Shown in pieces: positions 25,574 to 49,195 of a stretch of 64,000 bases of DNA (positions are counted from its first letter, which is position 1; the number at the start of each line of letters is the position of its first letter). The stretch comes from a phage: the NCBI GenBank assembly GCA_011915565.1, contig GCA_011915565.1_3920.1; one strand, 5' to 3'. The notes under the pieces are model-generated. The model was not told where the DNA came from, made no database searches, and saw nothing but the letters and a program-made list of their open reading frames with translations. Both the position numbers and the translations under genes were made by a program.

Positions 25574-26359
25574 ATGGGTATTGTAAAAATAATTAATGGT
25601 GATATCTTTGCCGCATTTGATAAAGGTAAGTTTGACATCATCGGTCACGGTTGCAACTGTATGAACTTAATGGGTGCAGGTATCGCTGACAAGATTTCTA
25701 AACTTTACCCAAAAGCGTATGAGACCGATACAGAAGTTTATCTGTATGCAGGTGGTATAGGTCACAAACCCTGTGAAAATTTACTAGGTAATTTCTCTGT
25801 AGCACGTTTAAAACAAGGTCGTATAGCTAATCTTTACACTCAGCTTAAGACTGGTAAAGATGCCCGATACAGTGCTTTAGAGTCATCTTTGAAACAGCTT
25901 AACAGATACTGTGAAGTTAATCAGTTGAAGAAAGTTGGGTTACCTATGATTGGTGCAGGTATCGGTGGACTTGACCCTCAAGCCGTTACCGTTATCATTA
26001 ATCAGGTGATGAAGAGTGTAGATGTGTATCTGTATGTCTACGAAGGAGAGATGTACCACAAGTTACGCTCAGGTTGGAATAACTACTGCGAACCAGAATA
26101 CTTTGCAGGTGTAGTAACGTTCACAGACAATGCAGTTACCCTCTTCAGACGAAGAAAAGGTAAGATACATCAAAGTAACCCTCCGGTTGAAAAGATGTCT
26201 CTAAGTAACGCTCTAGTTACCCACCTGTCGAAGAGCAATCACAGAATTGCAGTAACATTTGGCAGTGATGCAGACACATATATCTATGCAAGGACTGATG
26301 AAGATATCGAGGAGATTTTCTCATCACAAGAAGTTACCTTCTTAGACGCAAAGAACTAA
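25574..26359 (+). CDS. hypothetical protein, tentatively macro-domain-like (ADP-ribose binding/processing)
   Basis: 261 aa; N-terminal FDIIGHGCNCMNLMGAGIADKI loosely resembles the macro-domain Gly-rich loop region; low certainty. Confidence 0.55.
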   Translation: MGIVKIINGDIFAAFDKGKFDIIGHGCNCMNLMGAGIADKISKLYPKAYETDTEVYLYAGGIGHKPCENLLGNFSVARLKQGRIANLYTQLKTGKDARYSALESSLKQLNRYCEVNQLKKVGLPMIGAGIGGLDPQAVTVIINQVMKSVDVYLYVYEGEMYHKLRSGWNNYCEPEYFAGVVTFTDNAVTLFRRRKGKIHQSNPPVEKMSLSNALVTHLSKSNHRIAVTFGSDADTYIYARTDEDIEEIFSSQEVTFLDAKN

Positions 26360-26390
26360 TAAACTCTGTAGAATATTCACAATAGATTAA

Positions 26391-26434
26391 GCCTTCCTTA
26401 TCTGGTAAATTTTTCAGGTAAGGAAGGCTTTTTT
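26391..26434 (+). terminator. intrinsic terminator
   Basis: 10-bp stem GCCTTCCTTA/TAAGGAAGGC followed by TTTTTT. Confidence 0.8.
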
Positions 26435-26627
26435 ATTTCAAGATTGTGCAGGTAGAGTTCTGTAGAGAAATCTGTAGAGAAAATTTTGAACTCCAAAGAG
26501 AAAATTCATTTTCAAACTGTGCAGGTAATCTCCAAAGAGCTTTTTCATTTTCAAAACGTGCAGACCCCGCTCAGGTCGGGCAAGAAAAATCATTTTAGAA
26601 TTGTGCAGGTAGGTGGATGCAGGTGGG
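26435..26627 (+). repeat. four direct repeats, consensus CATTTTCAAAnTGTGCAGGTA
   Basis: Copies near 26435, 26505, 26544, 26590; two also share CTCCAAAGAG upstream; lies between a terminator and the first early promoter. Confidence 0.6.
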
Positions 26628-26787
26628 GATGTCGCCATTTCTCACAAGGCTAACACATCTGGAAATAAAAGTCAACAGAAAAATTTGTAGCGGATTGAAA
26701 AATAATTCTTGATTGTAGTTCTGTTTTGTGGTAGTCGCGTGCGCCCGTTTCATTACAATTTTTGCAAAAATATTTTTAAAATTCCTA

Positions 26788-26816
26788 TTGACTCTTTGAG
26801 TATGGTTATCTAATAT
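26788..26816 (+). promoter_or_regulatory. sigma70-like promoter (TTGACT-17-TAATAT)
   Basis: Directly upstream of the first class-A hairpin leader. Confidence 0.55.
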
Positions 26817-26820
26817 TTGC

Positions 26821-26879
26821 ATCAACGGGGAGGGAATGACCTTCCCCACTAAGTAAAGTCCTAAACTGGAGATTCTAAA
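26821..26879 (+). promoter_or_regulatory. class-A leader element, copy 1
   Basis: ATCAACGGGGAGGGAATGACCTTCCCCACTAAgTAAAGTCCTAAACTGGAGATTCtAAA then ATG; GGGGAGG/CCTTCCCC hairpin plus RBS. Confidence 0.6.
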
Positions 26880-27260
26880 ATGGCATACCGTGCACCTAAA
26901 TTCATCAACAAAGACAACTTCCGCAACGCACTGGAGAAGTCACTTGATGAAAAATTTAACGGCAAATTGATTGTTGTTCACGCATTCAATTTTAAGTATG
27001 ATATTAACGGGAATAAAATCAACCATTACACGGCAACCATGTTAGATGGTACGCTATCAAGTGAAAAAGCCGTACTGAATGCACTTGCAGGACGTGGTAA
27101 AAACCTGATAAGCTGCAATAAGAGACGTTATCAAGGTGGCGCATATGGTTATGATGATGCTGTTTACCATCTTGAAAATATGGGCTATTCAGTGGAGAAA
27201 GCTGGAGCGTCTCAAATAATTGGTAGTGATGGTTATGTGACAATCTTCAAAATTAAATAA
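26880..27260 (+). CDS. early-array small protein 1
   Basis: 126 aa ORF after class-A leader. Confidence 0.6.
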   Translation: MAYRAPKFINKDNFRNALEKSLDEKFNGKLIVVHAFNFKYDINGNKINHYTATMLDGTLSSEKAVLNALAGRGKNLISCNKRRYQGGAYGYDDAVYHLENMGYSVEKAGASQIIGSDGYVTIFKIK

Positions 27261-27346
27261 AAGTACTTTACAAGGGGCTTATAGTTCGATAAAGTAAGCC
27301 CCAGATAAAGAGCTTTATCACTCAATCCTAAATTGGAGATTCAAAA
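27258..27346 (+). promoter_or_regulatory. class-B leader element, copy 1
   Basis: AAGTACTTTACA, GGGGCTTA-loop-TAAGCCCC hairpin, AGATAAAGAGCTTTATCACTCAATCCTAAATTGGAGATTCAAAA then ATG; embedded TTTACA-17-TAAAGT promoter-like spacing. Confidence 0.6.
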
Positions 27347-27604
27347 ATGGCTATTATCAAAAACGTTGTAGTTCCTGCAAAAACTCGTGATGACGCTCGC
27401 ATCATGGCGAAAAAGTTAGGCGGGAAAGTGGTTGACAACGGAAAACAATCTGCTGTAAGATGGAGCGTGAAGGCTGATAAGCAACTAACCTTAAAACGCA
27501 GTTCAAACAATCTTTTTAAAGGTGTAAAATCACTCGGTAAAGTGAACGTGTTTACCAAAAAAGGCTATAAAATGCACTTATCATTAACTGGCAATTTAAT
27601 CTGA
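27347..27604 (+). CDS. early-array small basic protein 2
   Basis: 85 aa, Lys-rich. Confidence 0.55.
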   Translation: MAIIKNVVVPAKTRDDARIMAKKLGGKVVDNGKQSAVRWSVKADKQLTLKRSSNNLFKGVKSLGKVNVFTKKGYKMHLSLTGNLI

Positions 27605-27605
27605 T

Positions 27606-27694
27606 AAAGTACTTTACAGGGGGCTTAAAAGCTGATATCTTAAGCCCCAGATAAAGAGCTTTACCACTCAATCCTTAAACTAGGAGATTCAAAA
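27606..27694 (+). promoter_or_regulatory. class-B leader element, copy 2
   Basis: Same architecture as copy 1 (TTTACA, GGGGCTTAA hairpin, AGATAAAGAGCTTTACCACTCAATCC, GGAGATTCAAAA-ATG). Confidence 0.6.
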
Positions 27695-28207
27695 ATGAAA
27701 ACTGTAGAAGCTACCTTTGAAGTTGTAAAAGAAAAATTTTCCATCATTTACGAAGCTGTTAATTGCTTTGAAGCAAGCCATAACCTTGATAATTGGGAGT
27801 TTACAGATGACCATCAAGGCGGCGTGACTATTAAAAACCCCAACTGTCAGCGTAATGATTTTAAATATGCAATCCCTTTACATTACAGCCTTAAACAGCT
27901 TTCAAGTGACTATGCAAAACAAGGCCGGGAAAATCCATCAAAAGAGGCTTACATAAGCTTACAGAAAGAACTAGAAAGAGATTTAGAGGCTTCAGAATAC
28001 AACCTTGCCGCGAAAGTTGTCGATGCAAATGGTCAAACAATTTTAGATAGTTTTTATATTGGTTACGCTTTCGATTGGTGCTATAGTGACGGCGATGATT
28101 TAGAGGATAGACTAAAAGAAGAGGTGAGCAATTCAGACGCAGAATCTGAAGTATTAGAACGCTTGGAAGCATTAAAAGATTCAGTGATGAATATCTTTAA
28201 GAACTAA
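27695..28207 (+). CDS. early-array acidic protein 3
   Basis: 170 aa, Asp/Glu-rich C-terminal half. Confidence 0.6.
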   Translation: MKTVEATFEVVKEKFSIIYEAVNCFEASHNLDNWEFTDDHQGGVTIKNPNCQRNDFKYAIPLHYSLKQLSSDYAKQGRENPSKEAYISLQKELERDLEASEYNLAAKVVDANGQTILDSFYIGYAFDWCYSDGDDLEDRLKEEVSNSDAESEVLERLEALKDSVMNIFKN

Positions 28208-28295
28208 ATAGATTTCTTTACACGGGGCTATCAAGCTGATAAGATAGCCCCAGATAAAGAGATTTATCAACTATCCTAAACTGGAGATTCAAAAA
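28208..28295 (+). promoter_or_regulatory. class-B leader element, copy 3 (diverged)
   Basis: TTTACAC-GGGGCTATC hairpin-GATAGCCCC-AGATAAAGAGATTTATCAACTATCC...GGAGATTCAAAAA-ATG. Confidence 0.55.
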
Positions 28296-28592
28296 ATGAA
28301 ATTATCAAATAAAGTCCGTGAAAATCTAAGCAAGTTACTCAACAAAATTGATTTTATCGAGACATCAAGGAATAGTCATGATGTTATGGAATGGTTACAC
28401 GGAAAAATCAAAGGCCGTCGTGTAGTGATTTGCTTATGGAATAGTTGCAGGGAATATAAAAAACCTGTATTACAAGTCAATATCTATGATGATACTTTTA
28501 AAAGCCCTGTAAAGTCTAAAAGTGATTTATTAGAATCCTATGAGATAACTGTAAATGGCAAAGTATCAAGTAAAGAGGAAACACCATGTTAA
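28296..28592 (+). CDS. early-array small protein 4
   Basis: 98 aa. Confidence 0.55.
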   Translation: MKLSNKVRENLSKLLNKIDFIETSRNSHDVMEWLHGKIKGRRVVICLWNSCREYKKPVLQVNIYDDTFKSPVKSKSDLLESYEITVNGKVSSKEETPC

Positions 28593-28918
28593 TGACTGGT
28601 ATCACTGCAATCATTGCCATTTTCGCGCTATATAAGGCATATAAAGCCTATAATCTAGCAAATAAGGCAATCACACAGCAGGTTAGCAATAGCCTTGTAG
28701 AAAGCTTTCTAGGGCGTCTCAGTGATGAGCAAATAAAGCGGTTAGAAATGAGCTTCAGATTCAAAGCGAAAACCTATCAGATAAGTGACATCTTCAAGGA
28801 TGATTTCCAGTTAGTCGATGATTATAATTCTCTGATAAATGCTTTAAATATCAGTGACTTAAAAGACTACTACGCTGTAATTGTTCAAGAGTTGAGCAAA
28901 CGAAAACAAAACTGTTGA
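28586..28918 (+). CDS. early-array small membrane protein 5
   Basis: 110 aa; N-terminal TM helix; AAGAGGAAA RBS; no leader element of its own. Confidence 0.55.
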   Translation: MLMTGITAIIAIFALYKAYKAYNLANKAITQQVSNSLVESFLGRLSDEQIKRLEMSFRFKAKTYQISDIFKDDFQLVDDYNSLINALNISDLKDYYAVIVQELSKRKQNC

Positions 28919-29007
28919 CACTGATTTTTAGATAGATTAAATTACACATCAACGGGGAGGGAACAACCTTCCCACTAAATAAAGTCCTTAAACTAGGAGA
29001 TTCTAAA
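28914..29007 (+). promoter_or_regulatory. class-A element copy 2: promoter TTGACA-17-TAAATT plus hairpin leader
   Basis: TTGACACTGATTTTTAGATAGATTAAATTACACATCAACGGGGAGGGAACAACCTTCCCACTAAATAAAGTCCTTAAACTAGGAGATTCTAAA then ATG; near-identical to 29779-29870. Confidence 0.65.
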
Positions 29008-29280
29008 ATGTATACTACTAACAATGGCCTCACTTTGAACGTCACACTACGTCACTATGTAGATGGTGTCATGCACTTTGAAGATTTACAAGCTGAACAA
29101 CATATCTTAGATTGGCAAGTCGCAGGACTCCAAAAAACTGCTACGGGATACGGTAAAAAGATTCCAACTAGTTGGAAAGTTCACTATGAAGGACGTTTGC
29201 GCAGAATTTATCAAGATGTGCAAAGCAATAGCGCATCGAGTTACATTATAGTAAAAGGTGAAAAACTGCATTTAGTATAA
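29008..29280 (+). CDS. early-array small protein 6
   Basis: 90 aa. Confidence 0.55.
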   Translation: MYTTNNGLTLNVTLRHYVDGVMHFEDLQAEQHILDWQVAGLQKTATGYGKKIPTSWKVHYEGRLRRIYQDVQSNSASSYIIVKGEKLHLV

Positions 29281-29365
29281 AGTACTTTACATGGGGTTTA
29301 AAAGTTGGTATCTTAAGCCCCAGATAAAGAGCTTTACCCCTAAATCCTAAATTGGAGATTCAAAA
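29279..29365 (+). promoter_or_regulatory. class-B leader element, copy 4
   Basis: AGTACTTTACATGGGGTTTAAAAGTTGGTATCTTAAGCCCCAGATAAAGAGCTTTACCCCTAAATCC...GGAGATTCAAAA-ATG. Confidence 0.6.
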
Positions 29366-29770
29366 ATGGCTATTAATAATCGTGAGTTATCAATCTTAAA
29401 AGCACGTTTAACCGTTAATCGAATCAATGTTATCACGTCATCAGCACCAGACGAGACATTACACAACATTATCGGGAAGATTCAAGGTGTTATCTTAGAC
29501 GTTGAGAATGTAAAAAACTCATTAGCAGACGTTGCAGCAGGTGTTACACTAGACGGCGCACAATATGAAATGATTGACATGTTAGGCAAATCAAAGGTTA
29601 TGAATAAAGAGTTAGACTTAAAAATGTTTCGATTTGCCGTGAAAGTATGGCTATCTGTCGAGTATGATGCTAATTTTGCAATTGCTGATTTCTTTGCCAC
29701 TTGGTTGCAACGTAACTTAACAAATCATGATTTTCGTGATATCTGTGATGCAATTTACGCAGAACTTTAA
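29366..29770 (+). CDS. early-array small protein 7
   Basis: 134 aa. Confidence 0.6.
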   Translation: MAINNRELSILKARLTVNRINVITSSAPDETLHNIIGKIQGVILDVENVKNSLADVAAGVTLDGAQYEMIDMLGKSKVMNKELDLKMFRFAVKVWLSVEYDANFAIADFFATWLQRNLTNHDFRDICDAIYAEL

Positions 29771-29778
29771 AAATTTTA

Positions 29779-29870
29779 TTGACACTGATTTTTAGATAGA
29801 CTAAATTACACATCAACGGGGAGGGAACAACCTTCCCACTAAATAAAGTCCTTAAACTAGGAGATTCAAA
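29779..29870 (+). promoter_or_regulatory. class-A element copy 3: promoter TTGACA-17-TAAATT plus hairpin leader
   Basis: About 90-nt near-exact duplicate of 28914-29007. Confidence 0.65.
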
Positions 29871-30413
29871 ATGAAATGCTTTCACGGTACTACTCAAGAA
29901 AACTTTATCAACCTGATTAATAACGGTGATAAACCATCAGGTGTATGGAATTGTTCGGATATGGACGGCAATTTTTACGTGTACCCAGAAAATAAACTCT
30001 ATGGTGATGATGAGGAAGAGATAGCATCGGAAGGTATCCAGCAAGCTCTAGGAAATGCCACTATCACGGCAGCTTTTCAGATGAAAACTCAAAATATTGT
30101 TATCTTAGAACTTGACATTCCAGAGGATGAGCTAAATGATGATTATTCTTGTGATAACATGTCAAATATAGCAAGCTTTACAGAGTACTTTGATGTAAAT
30201 TGGATTAAAAAGGTCTATACAACAGAGTTCAACGCTATGTATTCACCTTTTTGTCTCCCTTCACTGGATAATCCAAATTTGAATTATCTTGATGAAACAT
30301 TGGAGCTACTTGCTAAAAGTATCCAACAATCCGACAGTATTCAGGTTTTTTGTGACATCATGGATACACTGACAGAAAACATTGTAGAGAGTGATTTAAA
30401 GGTCTTTTTCTAA
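29871..30413 (+). CDS. early-array acidic protein 8
   Basis: 180 aa, strongly Asp/Glu-rich. Confidence 0.6.
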   Translation: MKCFHGTTQENFINLINNGDKPSGVWNCSDMDGNFYVYPENKLYGDDEEEIASEGIQQALGNATITAAFQMKTQNIVILELDIPEDELNDDYSCDNMSNIASFTEYFDVNWIKKVYTTEFNAMYSPFCLPSLDNPNLNYLDETLELLAKSIQQSDSIQVFCDIMDTLTENIVESDLKVFF

Positions 30414-30479
30414 AAACCTATACATTCACCTTATAAACACTGATTAACCCCTTACAGGGGCTTTTAGAGGGCTTAAATC

Positions 30480-30713
30480 ATGCTTACAACCATTTATCTC
30501 ATCCTTTCTATCTGTAACGGTCATTCATGTGACTTTAAAGGGCTTGAAGAGTTTACAGGAAGTAAAGAAAATGCTATTCAGGTTTGCCAGATAGCAAGAC
30601 AAGACTATCCCGCCAGTGACGACATTCAATGCTACTTTAAGACAGAAGATGAAGACGGCATCTATTTTGACAGCGTTGACGGTCAATATGAAATTATCAT
30701 TGAAAAAGACTAG
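30480..30713 (+). CDS. early-array small protein 9
   Basis: 77 aa; hydrophobic N-terminus; leader differs from classes A and B. Confidence 0.5.
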   Translation: MLTTIYLILSICNGHSCDFKGLEEFTGSKENAIQVCQIARQDYPASDDIQCYFKTEDEDGIYFDSVDGQYEIIIEKD

Positions 30714-30804
30714 ACAAGCCTGATAAAAGTCTGTAAATTACACATCAACGGGGAGGGAATGACCTTCCCCACTAAATAAAGTCCTTAAACTAGGAGATTC
30801 AAAA
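30711..30804 (+). promoter_or_regulatory. class-A element copy 4 (TAGACA-17-TAAATT plus hairpin leader)
   Basis: ...TAAATTACACATCAACGGGGAGGGAATGACCTTCCCCACTAAATAAAGTCCTTAAACTAGGAGATTCAAAA-ATG. Confidence 0.6.
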
Positions 30805-31146
30805 ATGGCTTATGTAACCGTAATTACCGATAAAGCTGGCTCATCTTGGTCAACTCAGGTTAGTGATAAGATGTCGCCTATGCAGTGCCTAAAATACTTT
30901 GAGCAGTGGAACAAAGGCGAGGATGTAAGCCCCTTTCAAGTGATGCAAATCATCCATACAGATAACGAAGGGAATAAAACGACCTTGAACAGTGAATACT
31001 ACGCAAGCCGTTTTGAAACGAGAAGTAAAACAATGAAGCTTTTACGTGAATCCGGCTATTCTCATATTGCCGCGCTAATCTGGGATGACCTGCTAAAAAG
31101 CCAGCGTATCAGCTATGTAAAACCTGAAAAAATATTCATCAGTTAA
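30805..31146 (+). CDS. early-array small protein 10
   Basis: 113 aa. Confidence 0.6.
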   Translation: MAYVTVITDKAGSSWSTQVSDKMSPMQCLKYFEQWNKGEDVSPFQVMQIIHTDNEGNKTTLNSEYYASRFETRSKTMKLLRESGYSHIAALIWDDLLKSQRISYVKPEKIFIS

Positions 31147-31275
31147 TCAATAACTTACAAAAAACTTTTAAAAAAGTGTTGACAATACCCCTTGACATTG
31201 GTAACTTTGTTCGAGGGGGTTTATCTAAAAGGGATTCACTTAAAAGATTCTTTATAGATAAACTTAAAAAATTGC

Positions 31276-31304
31276 TTGCAATCATCTTCCAAAAACTTTA
31301 TAGT
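31276..31304 (+). promoter_or_regulatory. sigma70-like promoter (TTGCAA-17-TATAGT)
   Basis: In the 200-nt leader of ORF 31347; a second TTGACA/TTGACAT pair lies at about 31178-31200. Confidence 0.45.
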
Positions 31305-31346
31305 TTATCTCAAGCAATAATGCTTTCCTAAACTGGAGATTCAAAA

Positions 31347-31877
31347 ATGAACAAGTTCAAAGCTATCAACTACATTCGCTCAAATAGTGTCATGTCTAAG
31401 CCTGTTAAGGATACCTACGAATTTCGTTGCAATGGTGAACACTTTGCTACCATCACCAAATCAAACAACGGGGCTTATTATATCCATCGTCGTAATGTTT
31501 CTACGGTTGTAGTTTCTAACTTTATGCAAGCTGTAGCGGAACTCCTCCCGCTCTTCTTAGAAAAGTATGCCGTACAGTGTGAAAGTGTTCGTGAATGCAC
31601 TAAAACAGTGTTAAACGGTTATCGTATGGCTTACGAGCGCTCTTTAAAGAATCTCAATAAATACTACAAAGCACCGGAAGGCACTTCATCCACAGCCTAC
31701 GGGGTAGGGGGCTTCAATGTCAGCCTTTACGAAGTGGAAGAAATCGAGCTTTATGACCATCGCCCAAATGGTTACGCTAAGACACTGGGAGAGGGGTTAA
31801 TGCTGAATATCAAGAACTTAGAAAAAACTTTAAGAGAAATTGAAAAAGATATTGACGAGACAATCAAAAATCTGTAA
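31347..31877 (+). CDS. early-array protein 11
   Basis: 176 aa; CTAAACTGGAGATTCAAAA-ATG translation-initiation motif shared with classes A and B. Confidence 0.6.
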   Translation: MNKFKAINYIRSNSVMSKPVKDTYEFRCNGEHFATITKSNNGAYYIHRRNVSTVVVSNFMQAVAELLPLFLEKYAVQCESVRECTKTVLNGYRMAYERSLKNLNKYYKAPEGTSSTAYGVGGFNVSLYEVEEIELYDHRPNGYAKTLGEGLMLNIKNLEKTLREIEKDIDETIKNL

Positions 31878-31939
31878 ATTGTCAATCAACGGGGGGTAAC
31901 CTGCCCCACTAAACAAAATCCTAAACTGGAGTTATCAAG
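31852..31939 (+). promoter_or_regulatory. class-A element copy 5 (diverged; TTGACG-17-TAAATT plus hairpin)
   Basis: GTCAATCAACGGGGGGTAACCTGCCCCACTAAACAAAATCCTAAACTGGAGTTATCAAG-ATG. Confidence 0.5.
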
Positions 31940-32203
31940 ATGGAAAACGTAGAATTAACCACACTATTGCAGATTGCAACTGACAAAGAAGACGTAGCGT
32001 TGTTTCACCGTATCGAAAGTGATTTGTTCAATGGTGAAATCATTAAAGAATCTTACGAAGTTGTCGGATTCAAAGATGGTAAAGCATTTGGCTTTTTTGA
32101 CCTCGACAAAAGCAAAGCGGTTACAATGTACGATGTTCTATCTTGTGAAATTCTGACAAAATACAACGAAAAAAGGCTTGCAACCTACGCCAATATGCAG
32201 TAA
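31940..32203 (+). CDS. early-array small protein 12
   Basis: 87 aa. Confidence 0.5.
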   Translation: MENVELTTLLQIATDKEDVALFHRIESDLFNGEIIKESYEVVGFKDGKAFGFFDLDKSKAVTMYDVLSCEILTKYNEKRLATYANMQ

Positions 32204-32270
32204 ATTACTAATCAACGGGGAGGGAATGACCTTCCCACTAAACAAAGTCCTAAACTGGAGAATCTAAATT
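32178..32270 (+). promoter_or_regulatory. class-A element copy 6 (TTGCAA-17-TAAATT plus hairpin leader)
   Basis: TAAATTACTAATCAACGGGGAGGGAATGACCTTCCCACTAAACAAAGTCCTAAACTGGAGAATCTAAATT-ATG. Confidence 0.55.
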
Positions 32271-32519
32271 ATGTCAACTATCCGCGTAACTGTTAATGCT
32301 TATGGCTGCCACCAACTTGATGCAAAATTCGATATCGGTGGAACAGATAACACCTTTGACCTTATCAAAATGCTGATTCAGCAGGTGATACCAGATTATA
32401 ACCCTACTGATGACTTCTGGAAAGATGCCGTAAAAGAAGCCATAAACGAGGAATCTCACTACCATTATTGGGGTGACTTGATTATCTCTCTGTACTACAG
32501 CAAACAAGGTTACAACTAA
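32271..32519 (+). CDS. early-array small protein 13
   Basis: 82 aa. Confidence 0.5.
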   Translation: MSTIRVTVNAYGCHQLDAKFDIGGTDNTFDLIKMLIQQVIPDYNPTDDFWKDAVKEAINEESHYHYWGDLIISLYYSKQGYN

Positions 32520-32521
32520 TC

Positions 32522-32580
32522 GACGCAGCGGGGCTATTTAGCCCCAGATACCTGAAAAGCTCCTTCTCATAGGGGCTTTT
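32522..32580 (+). terminator. candidate terminator / truncated class-B hairpin
   Basis: GGGGCTATTTAGCCCCAGATA (class-B-like hairpin start) then AGGGGCTTTTTT. Confidence 0.4.
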
Positions 32581-34235
32581 TTACGTCTATAAAGAGACTC
32601 TATACAGTCCCTTTCCTTTCCTTCCTAGAATCTATCCCACTAATTCGATAGAGACTATCTCATACCTTAAAAAGCAATAACTCTATAGTCTACTCTATAA
32701 CCTCTTATCAAATCAACTTAAATATAAGCCCATAACCCGAAAGGGAAGGGCAACCACTAAAACGCTCTATAAAGCTCTATAACAGCCTTATCAACCTAAC
32801 TTAAGCAATCATATTAACCCACTCTAAAAAGCCCTTTATAGAGCTTCCCAGAGCCTTAAAAGAATCTTATAAGGGTGTAAGCTTTATCATCTCGTTAGTA
32901 TTCTTGTGAATAACTAAAAAGGGATTGGTAGTTCCTTTAAAGTATGTTATAGGGGCTATAAAGTTACTCAAAAGTTACGTAAAAGAGGCTATAAAGTTAC
33001 GTGATAGATAGCTTAAAAGTTACGTAAATGCTAGCCCCCTTAACATTTTCTTAACAATTTCTTAACAATCCCTACATAGTTATGCTTTTAAGGCACTTGT
33101 TAGAGACTTGTTAGCCCTTGTTAAATCTCTGTTAAGACCACGTAAAAGCCTTGTAAGAGTCTTTGACATAGCCTTAAAAGCCTCTGTAAAGCCCTATAAA
33201 GAGCTATCCATACAGTTGAGGGGTAGATACTAGGAAGAGATTTAAAAGAGCTTATAAAGAGTTATAGAGAGCTTTTAAGAGGTATGTTTAAGAGTTCACT
33301 AAGAAAGGAAAGGGAATGATAAGAAAAGAGATAGTGACCATGCTAATAGCTTGTTAAAAAGATTAAACACTTGTTAGAAACTTGTTAATTATCTTAACAA
33401 AATAACTCTTTAAAATTAACTTGTTAACTCTTGTTAGTCATCTGTTAAGCCTCTGTAAAGTCTATGTATCAACTGTTAAGAAACTGTTACATCCCTGTTA
33501 GTTCTGTTAAGAATCTGTTAAGACCTCTGAAGAGATGTTAAGAGAATGTAGTAGCTGTTAAGAGATTGTTAAGGATATTTTAAAATTTTGCAAAGTACTT
33601 GTAAGGGAGCTGTTAAGGGCTACCAAGCAGATATACATCCTAATCAGATATTTTTGAGTTCCTTCAAAGACCCTAAAAAATGACTTGATAGTCCTATTTT
33701 ATAAAAATTTTAAAAATCTGAATAATTACCTAGACAGTCTTTTAAAAATACAGGTAGAAACAGGCTTATAAGATACCTTGTTAGTACCGTGTTAGACCTT
33801 GTGAGATAAGGTCTGTAAAGATATTCCTGTTAAGTTTGTTAAAACAGTCTATATAGAGGCTTAGTAGTGCCTAGTGAACACCTATAGAGGGTAACATAGC
33901 TGACATAGAGATTAAGGGGTGTATAGAGGCTTCTAAGAGCGTATAGAGAGATGGTTAAGGTGATTGTATAGGTTGTTAAGAAGGCTTGTTAGAAGAGTGT
34001 TTAGAGGGCTTATTAAAGGGCTAGTTAGAAGGGTTATACAGAGGGCTATTAAGACCACTAGATAGTTACTAAGATACTATATAGTACTATATAACTATAT
34101 AGAGAGTAAGATTAAGGAGGTTGTTAAGAAGGATAGATATTTTGTTCACATATGATGGTGACCCAGAGGTTGGGACAACCGATAAAATTTTATAAAAATT
34201 AAAAAGCCCCCGATTAAGGAGGCTCTTAAGATATT
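32581..34235. repeat. 1.65 kb ORF-free repeat-dense region between convergent gene blocks
   Basis: No 60-aa ORF in any frame; dozens of short motifs (CTGTTAAG, CTTGTTAG, YTATAAAG, TATAGAG); in 33420-33620 the TGTTA cores recur at about 10-bp multiples. Confidence 0.7.
34196..34226 (-). terminator. candidate intrinsic terminator (minus strand)
   Basis: Reverse complement gives AGCCTCC-TTAATC-GGGGGCT followed by TTTTT, just downstream of the 34236 gene end. Confidence 0.45.
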
Positions 34236-44148: not shown

Positions 44149-44225
44149 CTCTGTTTAGCTCAGCTTGGTAGAGCGTTCCGTTTGGGGCGGTAAGGCCGGA
44201 GGTTCAAGTCCTCCAACAGAGACCA
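44149..44225 (+). tRNA. tRNA-Pro (anticodon TGG)
   Basis: Manual cloverleaf: acceptor CTCTGTT/AACAGAG, GGTTCAAGTCC T-arm, CCA encoded. Confidence 0.7.
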
Positions 44226-44232
44226 AATTAAT

Positions 44233-44310
44233 GTTCCAGTAGACAAAATGGTAAAGTCACCACTCTTTCAAAGTGGATATCTGAGGGTTCAAATCCCTTC
44301 TGGAACGCCA
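44233..44310 (+). tRNA. tRNA-Glu (anticodon TTC)
   Basis: Acceptor GTTCCAG/CTGGAAC; anticodon stem CCACT/AGTGG, loop CTTTCAA; CCA encoded. Confidence 0.7.
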
Positions 44311-44315
44311 GTTTT

Positions 44316-44392
44316 GACAGAAGACCAATTACAGCAAACTTAATCTTATTCATCTGAAGGTAAATCGGACAAAGAAGAGATTTGGTCTGGTC
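44316..44392 (+). other. tRNA-spacer structured element, copy 1 (CAGAAGACC...GGTCTGG)
   Basis: Conserved CAGAAGACCAATTACAGCAA head and TTGGTCTGG tail forming a 7-bp closing stem. Confidence 0.5.
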
Positions 44393-44401
44393 ATTAAGAA
44401 T

Positions 44402-44478
44402 TGCGGGTATAGAGAAAGGGTGTCTCACATGTCTCATTAGCATGGTATCGGCAGGTTCGACTCCTGCACCCGCCTCCA
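44402..44478 (+). tRNA. tRNA-Met (anticodon CAT)
   Basis: D-stem GAGA/TCTC, anticodon loop CTCATTA, T-arm GCAGG-TTCGACT-CCTGC, CCA encoded. Confidence 0.65.
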
Positions 44479-44480
44479 AA

Positions 44481-44550
44481 TTTACAGAAGACCGTTTACA
44501 GCAATACTTATTAAATTTTTAGCGGAAAAATTGAAAGATACGGTCTGGTA
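44481..44550 (+). other. tRNA-spacer structured element, copy 2
   Basis: TTTACAGAAGACCGTTTACAGCAA...ACGGTCTGG. Confidence 0.5.
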
Positions 44551-44561
44551 ATACTAAACAT

Positions 44562-44638
44562 GGTTAGGAAGCACATAAGGTATGTGCGGTCGCCTGTTAA
44601 GCGAATGGCACAGGGTTCGAATCCCTGACTAACCGCCA
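44562..44638 (+). tRNA. tRNA-Asn (anticodon GTT)
   Basis: Acceptor GGTTAGG/ACTAACC; anticodon loop CTGTTAA; T-arm CAGGG-TTCGAAT-CCCTG. Confidence 0.65.
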
Positions 44639-44646
44639 AATTAAAT

Positions 44647-44734
44647 GTGTCGTTATCCCGTAGATGGTAGCGGTGGGGACTGTAAATCCCTTGTCATTGA
44701 GACTCGGTAGGTTCGACTCCTACACGGCACACCA
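44647..44734 (+). tRNA. tRNA-Tyr (anticodon GTA), long variable arm
   Basis: 88 nt; anticodon stem-loop GGGGA-CTGTAAA-TCCCT; type II structure. Confidence 0.65.
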
Positions 44735-44739
44735 ATAAA

Positions 44740-44816
44740 GGCTATGTAGTTTAACTGGAGAAAATACTCCCCTGTCACGGGAGATGATGTGAGTTCAAGT
44801 CTCATCGTAGCCGCCA
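44740..44816 (+). tRNA. tRNA-Asp (anticodon GTC)
   Basis: Acceptor GGCTATG/CGTAGCC; anticodon stem CTCCC/GGGAG, loop CTGTCAC. Confidence 0.7.
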
Positions 44817-44875
44817 ATTTTGAGAGGGCTATTTAGTTCCTCCCTTAAAGAGTTCTTACGAGTATTCTTTAAAGG

Positions 44876-44952
44876 AGCAGAAGACCAAATACAGCAAGAA
44901 TGTATGAAATTTCAAGCCAATTTAATTTTGAAAATTTAAAACTTGGTCTGGC
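44876..44952 (+). other. tRNA-spacer structured element, copy 3
   Basis: GCAGAAGACCAAATACAGCAA...CTTGGTCTGG. Confidence 0.5.
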
Positions 44953-44963
44953 TCAACAAATTT

Positions 44964-45098
44964 ACAGAAGACCGTTTACAGCAAAACTTAAACAATCTAT
45001 TTCTCCGGTAAAGAAAAGGCGAAGGTTCGATTCCTTCACTCGGCAGATGTCGAGTTGGTGTAATGGTAGCACTTAAGATGATAAACAACGGTCTGGTA
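44964..45098 (+). other. tRNA-spacer structured element, copy 4, containing a degenerate tRNA-like segment
   Basis: TTTACAGAAGACCGTTTACAGCAA head; T-arm-like GAAGG-TTCGATT-CCTTC, hairpin ACTCGGCA/TGTCGAGT, D-arm-like TGGTGTAATGGTAGCAC, then ACGGTCTGG. Confidence 0.45.
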
Positions 45099-45239
45099 AT
45101 TATCTTTGTAGATAAGTTATTAAGCTTACCTGTGAGTATGCGACCACAAAGGGTGAAGGGTAAATTCTAGATTTAAACCCAAAAGGCACATCGCTACAGA
45201 CCTTAAGCAAGTCTGGGTAGCTTATCTACAAAGATAATT
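45098..45239 (+). other. perfect 19-bp inverted repeat enclosing 104 nt
   Basis: AATTATCTTTGTAGATAAG at 45098-45116 and its exact reverse complement at 45221-45239; lies between spacer element 4 and tRNA-Lys. Confidence 0.6.
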
Positions 45240-45243
45240 TAAT

Positions 45244-45319
45244 GGAAGTGTAGCAGAATGGTGATGCGGCAGACTTTTAATCTGACAGGCGATGGGTTCG
45301 AATCCCTCCACTTCTACCA
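45244..45319 (+). tRNA. tRNA-Lys (anticodon TTT)
   Basis: Anticodon loop CTTTTAA; T-arm ATGGG-TTCGAAT-CCCTC; paralog of the 46541 tRNA. Confidence 0.6.
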
Positions 45320-45397
45320 AATTCACCCTTAACTGAGAAACACCTGCGCGGCTGGAAACACCCACTCAACAGTTTCTCTAACTAGGGTACTTATTCT

Positions 45398-45474
45398 GGT
45401 TCAGTCGCAGATAAGGTAATGCAAGGGTCTCATAAGCCCTATGAATGTGGGTTCGATTCCCATCTGAACCTCCA
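45398..45474 (+). tRNA. tRNA with CAT anticodon (Met or lysidine-Ile)
   Basis: Acceptor GGTTCAG/CTGAACC; anticodon stem AGGGT/GCCCT, loop CTCATAA. Confidence 0.6.
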
Positions 45475-45475
45475 A

Positions 45476-45551
45476 GCTGGTATAGTTAAGAAGGTTATAA
45501 CACTCCCCTGATAAGGGAACATCGGTGGTTCGATTCCACCTACCAGTACCA
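45476..45551 (+). tRNA. tRNA-Ile (anticodon GAT)
   Basis: Acceptor GCTGGTA/TACCAGT; anticodon loop CTGATAA. Confidence 0.65.
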
Positions 45552-45566
45552 ATTTCAATAAAGTTG

Positions 45567-45595
45567 TTGACATTGAGATGTGACTCCTTTATACT
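45567..45595 (+). promoter_or_regulatory. sigma70-like promoter (TTGACA-17-TATACT)
   Basis: Inside the tRNA array, upstream of a 200-nt hairpin-rich spacer and tRNA-Arg. Confidence 0.55.
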
Positions 45596-45797
45596 AACCT
45601 TAGTTTTCGTTGCGTAGCGTCTATTTTGCAAATTTAAAATAAATGCAAACGACAATGTTTTTCTGGCAGTAGCTTGATAGGCTAAACACCAGTGAGGTCT
45701 TCCAATCCCTCATCAAAGAATTTGGCGTACTCGCCCACGGTATGATTAATAAGGTGGGCATCTTTAAGGGCTTTCTAAGAGAGTCTTTAAAGATAAT

Positions 45798-45874
45798 GCA
45801 CCCTTAGTTCAATTGGATAGAGCAACGGTCTTCTAAATCGTTAGTTACAGGTTCGAATCCTGTAGGGTGTACCA
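45798..45874 (+). tRNA. tRNA-Arg (anticodon TCT)
   Basis: Acceptor GCACCCT/AGGGTGT; D-arm GTTC...GAGC; anticodon loop CTTCTAA. Confidence 0.7.
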
Positions 45875-46016
45875 AATAGTTAGCAGATTACTTAGACGGC
45901 CTTAGCGGGTCTTCCTGTAGGGAGGTGGTCTGTATCTCATGTTTTCCAGAACATGTAAATAATCTGAGAAGAAGCTTGACAGTGTTGAGATAACAGGGTA
46001 AGCTTCGAATTATAAT

Positions 46017-46099
46017 ATGGGACGATGTTAAGACTCTAAGGCATGAGCAACGGCCTCCAAAACCGTTTCAAAGGGGTTCAACTCCTCCGTCCCATGCCA
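46017..46099 (+). tRNA. tRNA-Trp (anticodon CCA)
   Basis: Acceptor ATGGGAC/GTCCCAT; anticodon loop CTCCAAA; 83 nt with enlarged D region; preceded by TATAAT. Confidence 0.55.
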
Positions 46100-46112
46100 A
46101 AGTCTTATTAGG

Positions 46113-46200
46113 GGTAGGTAGCGGCTAATGGCAGCCAAACAGTCTTGAAAACTGTTGCCACTGTAGAGATACGGTGAGGGTTCGACTCCTTTACTTACCG
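46113..46200 (+). tRNA. tRNA-Ser (anticodon TGA), long variable arm
   Basis: Anticodon stem ACAGT/ACTGT, loop CTTGAAA; type II; no CCA encoded. Confidence 0.6.
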
Positions 46201-46376
46201 CCTAATAAGATTTACTCCGTCCATGCTTGTTCGCATTGTCGGTTTATCCCTCGTGTATTGTCGTACACTGTCAAAGCACCTAGTAGGTGTCACGGAGAAG
46301 AGATAATATCAAGCTCTCCAAAGGTTCTAGTCACCGGATTAAACAAGACTATGCAAAGACCTATTTAGGTCTTTTT
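46201..46376 (+). ncRNA. candidate structured non-coding RNA ending in an intrinsic terminator
   Basis: No ORF; long-range complementarity (ACTCCGTCC ... GTCACGGAGAAG); ends with AGACC-TATTT-AGGTCT plus TTTTT at 46355-46376. Confidence 0.4.
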
Positions 46377-46456
46377 AGAGGGCTTCTAAGGTTATTAGTC
46401 GCTTGTTGTGGAACCTTGTTGCTCAGGTTCTTAGAAGTTCTCTAAAAAGATTTAAT

Positions 46457-46533
46457 GCACCTATAGCCCAACTGGTAGAGGCAGCAGACTTAGAATCTGC
46501 TCAGTGTGAGTTCGAATCTCTCTAGGTGTACCA
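46457..46533 (+). tRNA. tRNA with TAG anticodon (Leu by anticodon; short variable arm)
   Basis: Acceptor GCACCTA/TAGGTGT; anticodon stem GCAGA/TCTGC, loop CTTAGAA; 77 nt, type I. Confidence 0.55.
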
Positions 46534-46540
46534 AATTAAT

Positions 46541-46616
46541 GCAGGTGTAGCAAAATGGTTATGCGGCTGACTCTTAATCAGTAAGACGATGGGTTCAATT
46601 CCCTCCACCTGTACCA
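46541..46616 (+). tRNA. tRNA-Lys (anticodon CTT)
   Basis: Paralog of the 45244 tRNA; anticodon loop CTCTTAA. Confidence 0.55.
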
Positions 46617-46622
46617 AACAAT

Positions 46623-46698
46623 GGGGTCATAGTTTATATGGTTAAAATTCGAGTTTTGCAAACTTGGGAACCGAGTTCAATTCTCGGTGACTCCACCA
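46623..46698 (+). tRNA. tRNA-Ala (anticodon TGC)
   Basis: Clean 76-nt cloverleaf: GGGGTCA acceptor, GTTT/AAAT D-stem, loop TTTGCAA, T-arm CCGAG-TTCAATT-CTCGG. Confidence 0.7.
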
Positions 46699-46704
46699 AT
46701 TAGT

Positions 46705-46779
46705 GCATCCATAGTTTAAACGGGAAAATTACAGTCTTCCAAACTGAGGTTGAGGGTTCGATTCCCTCTGGATGCTCCA
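46705..46779 (+). tRNA. tRNA-Gly (anticodon TCC)
   Basis: Acceptor GCATCCA/TGGATGC; anticodon loop CTTCCAA. Confidence 0.65.
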
Positions 46780-46786
46780 AATTAAT

Positions 46787-46862
46787 GCTCCTATCGTATA
46801 ATTGGTTATTACGGTTGCCTTGTAAGCAACTTATCAGGGTTCGAGTCCTTGTGGGAGCACCA
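46787..46862 (+). tRNA. tRNA-Thr (anticodon TGT)
   Basis: Anticodon stem GTTGC/GCAAC perfect, loop CTTGTAA; T-arm CAGGG-TTCGAGT-CCTTG. Confidence 0.7.
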
Positions 46863-46892
46863 ATTCAGAGGTCAAGTGAAAGACCGCTTTGA

Positions 46893-46950
46893 GTCAACTG
46901 AAGACCGTAACAAATTCCACGGAGTTGAGTTAGCGGCACAACTCCAGACC
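46893..46950 (+). other. tRNA-spacer structured element, diverged copy 5
   Basis: CTGAAGACCGTAACAAATTCC related to the CAGAAGACC head; enclosed by AGAGGTC/GACCTCT inverted repeat. Confidence 0.4.
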
Positions 46951-46958
46951 TCTTTCAT

Positions 46959-47033
46959 ACTCGCTTAGTTTATATGGTAAAACATCACCCTTACAAGATG
47001 AAGAAAAAGGTTCAAGTCCTTTAGTGAGTACCA
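46959..47033 (+). tRNA. tRNA-Val (anticodon TAC)
   Basis: D-stem GTTT/AAAC; anticodon loop CTTACAA; T-arm AAAGG-TTCAAGT-CCTTT. Confidence 0.65.
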
Positions 47034-47034
47034 T

Positions 47035-47112
47035 GTTCCAGTATCCCAATTGGCAGAGGATGCAAGCTCAAACCTTGTATTAGTGACGGTTCGAATCCGT
47101 CTTGGAACACCA
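47035..47112 (+). tRNA. tRNA with CAA anticodon (Leu by anticodon; short variable arm)
   Basis: Acceptor GTTCCAG/TTGGAAC; anticodon stem GCAAG/CTTGT, loop CTCAAAC; T-arm GACGG-TTCGAAT-CCGTC. Confidence 0.55.
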
Positions 47113-47117
47113 ATTTT

Positions 47118-47193
47118 GCAGGATTAGTTCAAATGGAAAGAGCAACAGTCTACGAAGCTGTTAATAGGGGTTCGAATCCCTTATCCTGCGCCA
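47118..47193 (+). tRNA. tRNA-Arg (anticodon ACG)
   Basis: Clean 76-nt cloverleaf; anticodon stem ACAGT/GCTGT, loop CTACGAA. Confidence 0.7.
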
Positions 47194-47210
47194 GATAAAA
47201 AGGTGATACT

Positions 47211-47453
47211 ATGCAAACATTAACAGTAGTTGAACATGAAAACTGTGAGAGTATTGAGTTTGTCAGGGTCATTGGTGTTGAACACCACATTTTCTTAAAA
47301 GTTGGATACTTATGTGACCCCGCTAGAGTAGAAAGATTTATACGTGATTGTTTTGGTGGTAGACATCTGAAGAGTGTTATTTTTGAGACAGTTTTACCAG
47401 AAGGTTTAGAAACGAATAATAACATTTACCTCCTTACGAGGATTAGACAATGA
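47211..47453 (+). CDS. hypothetical protein embedded in tRNA array
   Basis: 80 aa; AAGGTGA RBS 6 nt upstream; directly follows tRNA-Arg. Confidence 0.5.
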   Translation: MQTLTVVEHENCESIEFVRVIGVEHHIFLKVGYLCDPARVERFIRDCFGGRHLKSVIFETVLPEGLETNNNIYLLTRIRQ

Positions 47454-48007: not shown

Positions 48008-48015
48008 AGATTTAA

Positions 48016-48091
48016 AGGGGATTAGTTTACAAGGTTAAAACCTCGGTCTTTGAAATCGAAGAAGTTGGTTCAATTCCAACATCCCCCGCCA
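48016..48091 (+). tRNA. tRNA-Gln (anticodon TTG)
   Basis: Anticodon loop CTTTGAA; T-arm GTTGG-TTCAATT-CCAAC; unpaired 1:72 and G73. Confidence 0.65.
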
Positions 48092-48093
48092 AT

Positions 48094-48172
48094 GCTCCAT
48101 TACTCCAATTGGCAGAGAGGCCAGACTTAAAATCTGTGTTATGTATCGGTTCGAATCCGATATGGAGTACCA
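48094..48172 (+). tRNA. tRNA with TAA anticodon (Leu by anticodon; short variable arm)
   Basis: Acceptor GCTCCAT/ATGGAGT; anticodon loop CTTAAAA; D-loop AATTGGCAGA shared with the 47035 tRNA. Confidence 0.5.
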
Positions 48173-48177
48173 AATTT

Positions 48178-48253: not shown

Positions 48254-48284
48254 CTTCTAAGGATTCTTACGAGAGTCCTTAAAT

Positions 48285-48360: not shown

Positions 48361-48366
48361 ATTTAT

Positions 48367-48442: not shown

Positions 48443-48458
48443 ATTTCAAAGGTGCTTA

Positions 48459-49193: not shown

Positions 49194-49195
49194 AT

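Follow-up and report, generated by a model that had tools for sequence, protein, structure and literature searches.

Why should most small genes in one stretch of a phage genome carry one of two repeated promoter and hairpin modules immediately upstream? The question is raised by a 5.8-kb array at positions 26780-32580 of a 64,000-nucleotide stretch of phage DNA (hereafter the window; GenBank assembly GCA_011915565.1, contig GCA_011915565.1_3920.1). Our answer, which we consider probable, is that this hyperplastic block is built of early expression cassettes, each of them self-contained, and that the modules common to them double as recombination joints. A cassette would consist of a promoter for host sigma-70, an RNA element with secondary structure, a leader specific to the array and one (occasionally two) small accessory open reading frames (ORFs).

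Sequence comparison places the window in Felixounavirus, among the Felix O1-type myoviruses. The array region is 99.9% identical to Escherichia phage vB_EcoM-Ro111lw over 78% of the region, and approximately 250 further Ounavirinae records, mostly Felixounavirus, match it more patchily. Gene order and the presence of 26 tRNA genes are consistent with a Felix O1-type myovirus. The array lies 3' of rIIA/rIIB and of a macro-domain gene (25574-26359; Pfam Macro), and its counterparts are genes ~14-23 of Felix O1, genes 14-27 of wV8 and g98-g111 of Bas63. It contains 13 plus-strand ORFs of 77-180 amino acids (aa) within 26880-32519. The sequence, the ORF list and a repeat finder place these ORFs, together with six class A and four class B modules, where a first-pass annotation had put them. 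Beyond that annotation, an eleventh ORF (31347) has a third type of promoter and leader that carries the same ribosome-binding leader. An array-specific ribosome-binding leader is found upstream of 11 of the 13 ORFs (six with class A, four with class B and one with the third type). The two ORFs that lack a module begin at 28586, where the ORF overlaps the preceding one, and at 30480.

For comparison we used 29 IMG/VR loci, retrieved via the flanking macro-domain protein, and added the GenBank records of wV8, AYO145A, XTG1, Bas63 and three Kolesnikvirus-type phages. By profile and covariance-model searches, each array in this set has 8-17 modules, all on the plus strand, and the 10 kb upstream of the array has none; the modules are restricted to the array. 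Single modules used as blastn queries match ~245-290 phage records at 1270-1445 places, almost all of them Ounavirinae or Ounavirinae-like, with a few other labels (Staphylococcus, Campylobacter and two unlisted) on records that were not inspected. Module cores of 21-31 nucleotides (nt) have 2-5 matches versus 0.00 expected in shuffled sequence, and a chance origin of these repeated cores is excluded.

Modules and their shared leader

The class A modules combine a predicted promoter with a hairpin in the 5' leader. The six copies in the window are as follows.

26788-26882, plus strand: class A module 1, with -35 TTGACT (26788-26793), -10 TAATAT (26811-26816), hairpin 26827-26847 and leader to ATG 26860-26882; serves ORF 26880-27260 (126 aa).
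28915-29010, plus strand: class A module 2, with -35 TTGACA (28915-28920) enclosing the TGA stop codon of the preceding ORF, -10 TAAATT (28938-28943) and hairpin 28954-28973; serves ORF 29008-29280 (90 aa).
29779-29873, plus strand: class A module 3, with -35 TTGACA (29779-29784), -10 TAAATT (29802-29807) and hairpin 29818-29837; serves ORF 29871-30413 (180 aa, acidic).
30711-30807, plus strand: class A module 4, with -35 TAGACA (30711-30716), -10 TAAATT (30734-30739) and hairpin 30750-30770; serves ORF 30805-31146 (113 aa); model score 97.5 bits.
31852-31942, plus strand: class A module 5, a divergent hairpin variant, with -35 TTGACG, -10 TAAATT (31875-31880) and hairpin 31891-31907; serves ORF 31940-32203 (87 aa); model score 45.6 bits.
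32178-32273, plus strand: class A module 6, with -35 TTGCAA, -10 TAAATT (32201-32206) and hairpin 32217-32236; serves ORF 32271-32519 (82 aa).

The two promoter elements are separated by 17 nt in all six copies. The first-pass consensus, TTGAC(A/T/G)-17-TAAATT, was correct in its spacer but too narrow in its hexamers: the -35 element is more varied, with TAGACA and TTGCAA also represented, and the -10 element is TAAATT in five copies but TAATAT in the first. Two copies said to be near-identical over about 90 nt are indeed 98% identical over 93 nt (28915-29007 and 29779-29871). In the comparative set, -35-type hexamers (TTGACA, TTGCAA and variants) lie 16-18 nt from a -10 hexamer that is TAAATT, TAAAGT, TAGTAT or TAATAT.

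Placing the transcription start 7-8 nt 3' of the -10 element predicts an mRNA with ~2-4 unpaired nucleotides at its 5' end and a hairpin ~3 nt after the start. The distance from the -10 element to the first G of the hairpin is 10-11 nt in 84 of 84 distinct class A copies. All 50 distinct class A hairpin sequences fold; examples are GGGGAGGG...CCTTCCCC, GGGAGG...CCTCCC and, in Mooglevirus/Suspvirus-like loci, GGGGCAAGCAAGCCCC. RNAalifold recovers no structure from a plain MAFFT alignment of 126 class A modules, because hairpins of unequal length are misaligned, and a covariance-model alignment was used in its place. Pairing extends to 94.9% of cells in that alignment, which is biased towards the model; compensatory changes are evident at three pairs, and a conserved G.U pair is present in 95 distinct sequences.

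The class B modules have a more compact layout, in which the predicted -35 element would lie in the 5' strand of a lower stem and the -10 element in the apical loop and 3' arm. Four copies are present in the window.

27260-27349, plus strand: class B module 1, with long hairpin 27260-27317, whose lower stem includes the stop codon of the preceding ORF, -35 TTTACA (27267-27272), -10 TAAAGT (27290-27295), upper stem-loop 27274-27302, predicted +1 at 27303 and leader to ATG 27327-27349; serves ORF 27347-27604 (85 aa).
27606-27697, plus strand: class B module 2, with long hairpin 27606-27663 (minimum free energy -26.7 kcal/mol, z -2.7), -35 TTTACA (27613-27618), -10 TATCTT (27636-27641), upper stem-loop 27620-27648 and predicted +1 at 27649; serves ORF 27695-28207 (170 aa, isoelectric point (pI) 4.49).
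28210-28298, plus strand: class B module 3, a variant whose two helices both carry compensatory changes, with -35 TTTACA (28217-28222), -10 TAAGAT (28240-28245), upper stem-loop 28224-28251 and predicted +1 at 28252; serves ORF 28296-28592 (98 aa) and the overlapping ORF 28586-28918 (110 aa).
29279-29368, plus strand: class B module 4, with -35 TTTACA (29286-29291), -10 TATCTT (29309-29314), upper stem-loop 29293-29321 with a U.G pair and predicted +1 at 29322; serves ORF 29366-29770 (134 aa).

As the first-pass annotation had noted, TTTACA and a -10-like hexamer are spaced 17 nt apart across the hairpin in all four window copies, with the -10 hexamers inside the GGGGCTTA...TAAGCCCC hairpin. 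Among 112 distinct copies, the hexamer exactly 17 nt after TTTACA has T at position 1 in 105, A at position 2 in 105 and T at position 6 in 106, whereas positions 3-5 vary freely, such that ~15 different hexamers occur in register. Seven copies are exceptions and are compatible with a spacer of 18 nt. In terms of sequence conservation, this is the pattern expected of -10 recognition by sigma-70, and it persists even though the hairpin that holds the hexamer, in its loop and 3' arm, varies in sequence.

When folded with upstream context, the short class B hairpin proves to be the top of a longer one (z -2.7 to -3.9). The lower stem is formed by AAAGUA.CUUUA, which contains the -35 element, pairing with downstream UAAAG.AGCUUU. 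The complete hairpin spans ~58 nt and has a lower helix of 11 base pairs (bp), an upper helix of 9-10 bp and a 3x3 internal loop. RNAalifold recovers both helices unguided from the 112 distinct copies, which come from three genera. Standard pairs occupy 96.6% of the cells of the 20-pair structure, a value reached by none of 500 shuffles and compared with 31-56% in slid controls. Compensatory exchange of G-C and U-A is evident at columns 10-63 (91/12) and 24-50 (103/8), and columns 31-44 are represented by five pair types. In addition, 55 different class B hairpin sequences were collected, with apical loops of 9-14 nt. An Rfam search at E <= 1 gives no family match for the modules, only three sub-threshold chance matches, one of which is a microRNA-precursor model on a class B hairpin.

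The predicted +1 (the A of AGAUAAAG) is usually 7 nt (6-8) after the -10 element and falls in the 3' side of the internal loop. Therefore, the complete class B hairpin can form only in RNA read through from upstream. A promoter inside a hairpin would be an unusually compact overlap of DNA-level and RNA-level codes, and we consider a promoter within a processing hairpin the most interesting of the predicted features.

The remaining promoter and leader combination is of a third type.

31276-31349, plus strand: third leader type, TTGCAA-17-TATAGT with a predicted 5' end that carries AAGCAATAATGCTT, a small hairpin rich in A and U; serves ORF 31347-31877 (176 aa), with the same ribosome-binding leader as classes A and B.

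This ribosome-binding leader, about 25 nt long, is the feature most widely shared in the array. As RNA, the proposed translation-initiation leader would read UCCU-UAAACU-AGGAG-AUUCAAAA-AUG, and nearly all array ORFs share UCC(U)-UAAACU-(A)GGAG-AUUCAAAA-AUG. The leader occurs at 11 sites across 26860-32273, and its core, TAAAYT(A)GGAG, has 11 occurrences in the 64 kb, all in the array, on the plus strand and directly 5' of an ORF start. In other phages the leader also precedes ORFs that have no promoter module. There are two alleles, CCT-AAACT-GGAG and CCTTAAACTAGGAG, and the T and A insertions that distinguish them are almost perfectly linked (213 and 188 instances versus 3 mixed). Jointly, the insertions lengthen by one U-A pair a small hairpin in which the Shine-Dalgarno sequence would be sequestered. 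The linkage is only suggestive, because the two haplotypes may reflect one event. The Kolesnikvirus leader differs (CCCUUAYAAAGGAAUC) but has the same kind of small hairpin.

Kolesnikvirus-type phages of Erwinia, Hafnia and Salmonella (loci L035, L036 and L037) carry the same system with further module types. One consists of TTGACA-18-TAAAAT with the -10 element in the loop of GAGGGG/CCCCTC, and another of TTGCAA or TTTACA followed by a GGGGTTA...TAACCCC hairpin.

Proposed roles of the hairpins

A reading in which the hairpins are terminators or attenuators that insulate each cassette and limit read-through has some appeal. The stems are rich in G and C and have the polyG...polyC look of the promoter early stem-loops (PeSLs) of T4-type phages (PMC2839356), there is one hairpin per intergenic space, and the annotators of XTG1 labeled the hairpins as terminators, although on the opposite strand. 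However, no module hairpin is followed by a U tract; class B hairpins are followed by AGAUAAAGAG and class A hairpins by ACUAAAUAAAG. A terminator scan finds none inside the modules but does find a flanking terminator, and a class A hairpin ~3 nt from its own start would abort the transcript of its own cassette. We consider insulation by terminators or attenuators unlikely, and intrinsic termination specifically was rejected because the U tracts are missing.

The palindromes could instead be DNA operators at which a dimeric regulator of the phage or host shuts the early promoters off coordinately. This would fit the arms of class B, which bracket the spacer and -10 element, and the almost invariant GGGG...CCCC and AGATAAAG. 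It would also fit the Kolesnikvirus TTGACA-18-TAAAAT promoter, with its -10 element in the loop of GAGGGG/CCCCTC, and the lineage-specific changes present in all copies, as expected under co-evolution with one trans-acting factor. The pairing statistics indicate otherwise. When the class B upper stem is forced to nine pairs, there are 913 Watson-Crick, 81 G.U, 1 A.C and 13 other combinations, and pair 7 of the lower stem is U.G in 101 of 112 copies. For both module classes, the plus strand folds more stably than its complement. That G.U is tolerated, A.C is not and the plus strand is the more stable argues for selection of the structure in plus-strand RNA, and not of a cruciform or an operator in DNA. 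Strand asymmetry of this kind is not expected of a site in double-stranded DNA. Moreover, compensatory stem changes, a loop of 9-14 nt and the 55 class B and 50 class A sequences would be disallowed for a sequence-specific site, and the variant at 28210 breaks each half-palindrome, yet its flanks remain mutually complementary. Strand asymmetry and compensatory changes led us to reject the operator proposal, which we regard as quite improbable. These same observations argue for a class B structure that acts in plus-strand RNA.

If the hairpins are RNA elements of expression cassettes, the two classes would present them differently. The class A hairpin would be a 5'-terminal stem-loop on the mRNA of its own cassette and an inter-cistronic hairpin in read-through RNA. 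A 5'-terminal hairpin this near the start protects E. coli mRNA from 5'-end-dependent attack by RNase E, and we infer by analogy a 5' protective role for class A. The predicted geometry fits what such protection requires, as in the 5' untranslated region of ompA, a 5'-terminal stem-loop that is said to have been described as an mRNA stabilizer by Emory, Bouvet and Belasco in 1992: the hairpin begins 10-11 nt from the -10 element and leaves ~2-4 unpaired nucleotides at the predicted start. The class A element differs from ompA in that its hairpin is also present within read-through RNA and its start is predicted rather than mapped.

In read-through RNA, the class B hairpin would mark a cistron boundary, either as a 3' protective hairpin or as an RNase III-type processing site. 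Cleavage in its internal loop and initiation at its own promoter would produce 5' ends at approximately the same place. RNase III processing signals are reportedly present between the early genes of T7, with R1.1 as an example from the work of Dunn and Studier and of the Nicholson laboratory. Class B resembles these sites in having two coaxial helices (~11 and 9-10 bp), an internal loop and a capping loop, and in its location between cistrons of an early region without internal terminators. As with the T7 sites, one cleavage event on the 3' side of the internal loop would provide the upstream mRNA with a protective hairpin at its 3' end. Unlike the T7 early genes, each gene of the Felix O1-type cassettes has its own predicted promoter, embedded in the DNA of the hairpin. 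There is no sequence similarity to the T7 sites, and the likeness is one of size and shape. RNase III-type processing, which the first-pass annotation had raised for the hairpins, is plausible for class B on this analogy, and the idea gains support because class B folds into a ~20-bp two-helix hairpin with covariation.

A more elaborate version is that class B is dual-coded, with a sigma-70 promoter inside a processing hairpin for RNase III or another endonuclease, such that initiation and the processing of read-through RNA yield the same mature 5' end, and that the Shine-Dalgarno-sequestering leader is the target of a RegA/RegB-like post-transcriptional switch of the phage that shuts the array off. 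We offer this combination only tentatively and consider it doubtful. If true, the array would function as a plug-and-play platform for expression in which mRNA maturation and shut-off are uniform and built in.

We infer promoter activity from the conserved positions of the hexamers, and the early timing solely from semi-quantitative reverse transcription PCR (RT-PCR) of Felix O1, in which genes 13, 16, 20, 21 and 22 are maximal at 5 min (PMC3185647). Genes 16, 20, 21 and 22 are inside the array. The same paper lists 57-bp and 39-bp direct repeats, which correspond to the class B core and the class A promoter, respectively; it also lists other putative promoters and calls temporal control unknown (PMC3185647). 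The wV8 record (EU877232) annotates the same repeats as DR_1 to DR_9, and the wV8 paper does not discuss them. Thus listed without interpretation in 2009-2010, the repeats were not recognized as promoters, RNA structures or recombination joints. In other database entries, two of the repeats are annotated as promoters (AYO145A) and the hairpins as opposite-strand terminators (XTG1). The literature we searched contains no transcriptome, start-site map or PeSL-type interpretation for Felix O1-type phages. The modules described here would supply a map of predicted early promoters, starts and RNA structures for a group whose temporal control has been declared unknown.

Cassette exchange among relatives

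Near-identical modules between unrelated ORFs, above all the shared leader, would constitute portable homology. Homologous recombination or gene conversion between modules could add, delete, replace and occasionally relocate cassettes while leaving the expression signals intact. We clustered the array ORFs of 27 loci into 27 families. The families follow a collinear backbone (1-8-12-9-2-3-4-5-6-7-10-14-11), and at about six positions the arrays differ in which of approximately 15 accessory families they have. The module upstream of families 1, 5, 7 and 13 is class A or class B depending on the phage. Both orders of families 13 and 16 are found, and family 17 occupies two positions, with only 40% protein identity between the two copies.

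The window itself provides an example of a joint. Most relatives have family 13 with a class B module between the counterparts of ORFs 29366 and 29871, and the window lacks this cassette. Its module at 29779 is collinear with the class A module of relatives up to the leader and, from the ATG, with their class B-preceded ORF. On this alignment, class A module 3 is a recombinant joint. Four further events have the same seamless joints inside modules. In Ro111lw, a class A leader stands before the counterpart of ORF 31347, such that the spacer, -10 element and leader have been swapped. The swap is bounded by the -35 element and the shared leader, and the two phages are otherwise near-identical. 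Inserts that lack a module are flanked by leader-only joints. Overall, modules cover 18.8% of the array and contain 99 of the 114 ends of long collinear BLAST segments.

A Mooglevirus/Suspvirus-like contig (L026:7001-7523) has a tandem duplication of the family 8 cassette between class B modules, and the duplication includes one module joined directly to another.

Sequence comparison also reveals concerted evolution of the paralogous modules: similarity is higher among the copies of one genome than between groups, and lineage-specific substitutions are common to all paralogous copies. For example, class B columns 24-50 are G-C in all 147 correctly paired Felixounavirus and Moogle-like copies but U-A in 12 of 12 Kolesnikvirus copies, and class B column 26 is C in 97 of 107 copies versus T in 39 of 41.

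As far as genome alignments can tell, the differences among relatives are mostly cassette gain, loss and replacement, not free shuffling. The central proposal of the first-pass annotation, that of recombination-prone cassettes carrying small early genes, is supported: there is no single fixed gene set, the upstream module switches between classes A and B, and exchange is found between conserved modules with junctions inside them, but the backbone is largely collinear.

Several considerations weigh against the view that expression cassettes and recombination joints coincide. Every intergenic space is a module, such that a junction in a module is inseparable from one at a gene boundary, and gene order is mostly collinear, therefore mobility is limited. 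Module copies are related by descent and conversion, and the covariation counts are not independent events. Several invariant class B pairs carry no information, and the lower stem of class B overlaps the -35 element, whose conservation as a promoter may partly account for that of the stem. A transcript initiated within class B cannot form the hairpin and therefore would lack 5' protection, such that the two classes would differ in mode of action, a difference for which the model gives no reason. The coarse RT-PCR data place the peak of array genes 14, 17, 19 and 23 at 25 min (PMC3185647), and a search of the literature found neither mapped transcript 5' ends nor promoter assays or RNase III experiments for Felix O1-type phages.

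Another explanation is that the modules are mere expression signals, remnants of ancestral tandem duplication or selfish intergenic repeats kept alike by conversion, and that the exchanges are ordinary indels at gene boundaries. Concerted evolution does reveal active conversion, junctions in modules are indistinguishable from gene boundaries and some inserts lack a full module; against this stand modules that are 85-98% alike across three genera beside 27 unrelated ORF families, conserved versus free positions that match function (-35, T1/A2/T6, paired stem positions and Shine-Dalgarno), and an orientation and distance to the ATG that are fixed in more than 300 copies, and we judge this explanation very unlikely. 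An integron analogy is not favored: the array ORFs tested include no integrase, and the modules, which are expression signals, are unlike attC sites. The search for integrase families, which gave no match, covered the 13 array ORFs and the flanking macro-domain gene; the rest of the phage genome was not scanned.

The reading as expression cassettes with recombination joints finds its closest parallel in the PeSLs of the T4-type phages RB49, phi1, PST and nt-1 (Arbiol et al. 2010, PMC2839356; Comeau et al. 2014, PMC4122927), to which the first-pass annotation had compared the modules. Both are repeated composite motifs that combine a strong sigma-70-type early promoter (predicted here) with a polyG/polyC stem-loop, and both are concentrated where small ORFs without known function form a hyperplastic region. 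In both, close relatives differ by ORF insertion, deletion and replacement with crossovers inside the motifs. The crossovers lie between the -10 element and ATG or in the stem-loop in T4-type phages, and mostly in the leader or hairpin in Felix O1-type phages.

The analogy fails in the position of the hairpin. The PeSL stem-loop lies upstream of the promoter, and a terminator role has been proposed for it and shown by reporter assay, whereas the hairpin here is in the 5' leader (class A) or around the promoter (class B) and has no U tract. In addition, the Felix O1-type array has an extra array-specific leader of ~25 nt, which is the commonest crossover site. PeSL mini-circles, which are excised circular cassettes, are not known for the Felix O1-type array. 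The phages also belong to different groups, Ounavirinae and Tevenvirinae, respectively. No T4-type phage name appears in the counts from the blastn searches with modules, in which PeSL sequences were not compared directly. Thus, we treat the Felix O1-type cassettes as a functional analogue of PeSLs and not as a member. No paper in the literature searched links PeSLs to Felix O1-type phages. If the analogy holds, the idea of regulatory cassettes that double as recombination joints would extend beyond T4-type phages to unrelated, therapeutically used phages, namely Felix O1, wV8 and relatives of Bas63.

Cargo and flanking features

The products of the array resist annotation, as the first-pass reading had anticipated. 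None of the 13 matches Pfam at the cut-off, none of ten tested matches NCBIfam, and the same number searched against PHROGs match only families of unknown function. A sequence search of the PDB gives no functional annotation for any array ORF tested. Two products are strongly acidic, as had been noted (pI 4.49 for 27695-28207 and 4.05 for 29871-30413). Of two N-terminal transmembrane helices proposed earlier, that of ORF 28586 is a clear hydrophobic segment (top 19-residue hydropathy mean 1.64), and that of ORF 30480 is weaker (1.04).

The 180-aa acidic product of 29871-30413 (g107 of Bas63) has homologues only in Ounavirinae. Its AlphaFold model, built with 23 sequences, has a predicted local distance difference test score of 70.7 and a predicted template modeling score of 0.72. 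A Foldseek search with the model gives no significant match, but the top matches are repeatedly ADP-ribosyltransferases with modest scores. Thus, the protein looks like an ADP-ribosyltransferase-fold protein, a lead with which a remark on g107 in the PhageMaP preprint agrees (PMC11482910). The suggestion that this product is a DNA mimic is not favored, since the model repeatedly matches ADP-ribosyltransferase folds, albeit with modest scores. In Bas63, this array gene is more essential on one host (PMC11482910). A uniformly non-essential segment of the Bas63 genome at ~46-66 kb (PMC11482910) overlaps only the start of the array (64.6-70.5 kb). The modules would define a limited set of exchangeable early genes to search for host-takeover or anti-defense functions, and they could serve as natural, expression-ready insertion points for engineering Felix O1-type phages.

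The array is bounded by intrinsic terminators, and a weaker terminator-like element lies inside it.

26389-26430, plus strand: intrinsic terminator at the left array boundary, with a 17-bp stem followed by a T run (terminator scan).
30448-30465, plus strand: weak terminator-like hairpin CCCC-TTACA-GGGG (30448-30460) with CTTTT; wV8 annotates a terminator at its counterpart.
30480-30713, plus strand: module-less ORF of 77 aa with an N-terminal hydrophobic segment, which always travels with the preceding ORF.
32530-32583, plus strand: right array boundary, with a degenerate class B-type hairpin followed by an intrinsic terminator.
32530-32549, plus strand: hairpin GGGGCTATTTAGCCCC followed by AGAT, without a promoter (from the sequence).
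32555-32583, plus strand: intrinsic terminator AAAAGCTCC-N8-GGGGCTTTTTT (from the sequence).

The left terminator closes the upstream operon after the macro-domain gene, and its counterpart is annotated in AYO145A and wV8. The counterpart of the right terminator is annotated in AYO145A and is t23 in Felix O1. The sequence GGGGCTATTTAGCCCCAGAT at 32530-32549, 3' of the last ORF and just 5' of the terminator that ends the array, resembles a decayed class B hairpin.

An interval at 26431-26620, which separates the upstream terminator from the first class A promoter, contains three to four direct repeats of ~23-34 nt (CATTTTCAAACTGTGCAGGTA...), and relatives annotate small ORFs on either strand at the counterpart of this interval. 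The repeats could be a regulator-binding array. The 26 tRNA genes of the window are clustered on the plus strand at 44149-49368, as is typical of Felix O1-type phages.

Immediately beyond the array, ~1.6 kb (32600-34230) has no convincing ORFs and is dense in short repeats (CTTGTTA, CTGTTAAG and CTATAAAG). Several GenBank records of relatives start or stop near this interval, and Felixounaviruses have direct terminal repeats of ~600 bp. The interval may be a genome terminus or packaging region, or an origin.

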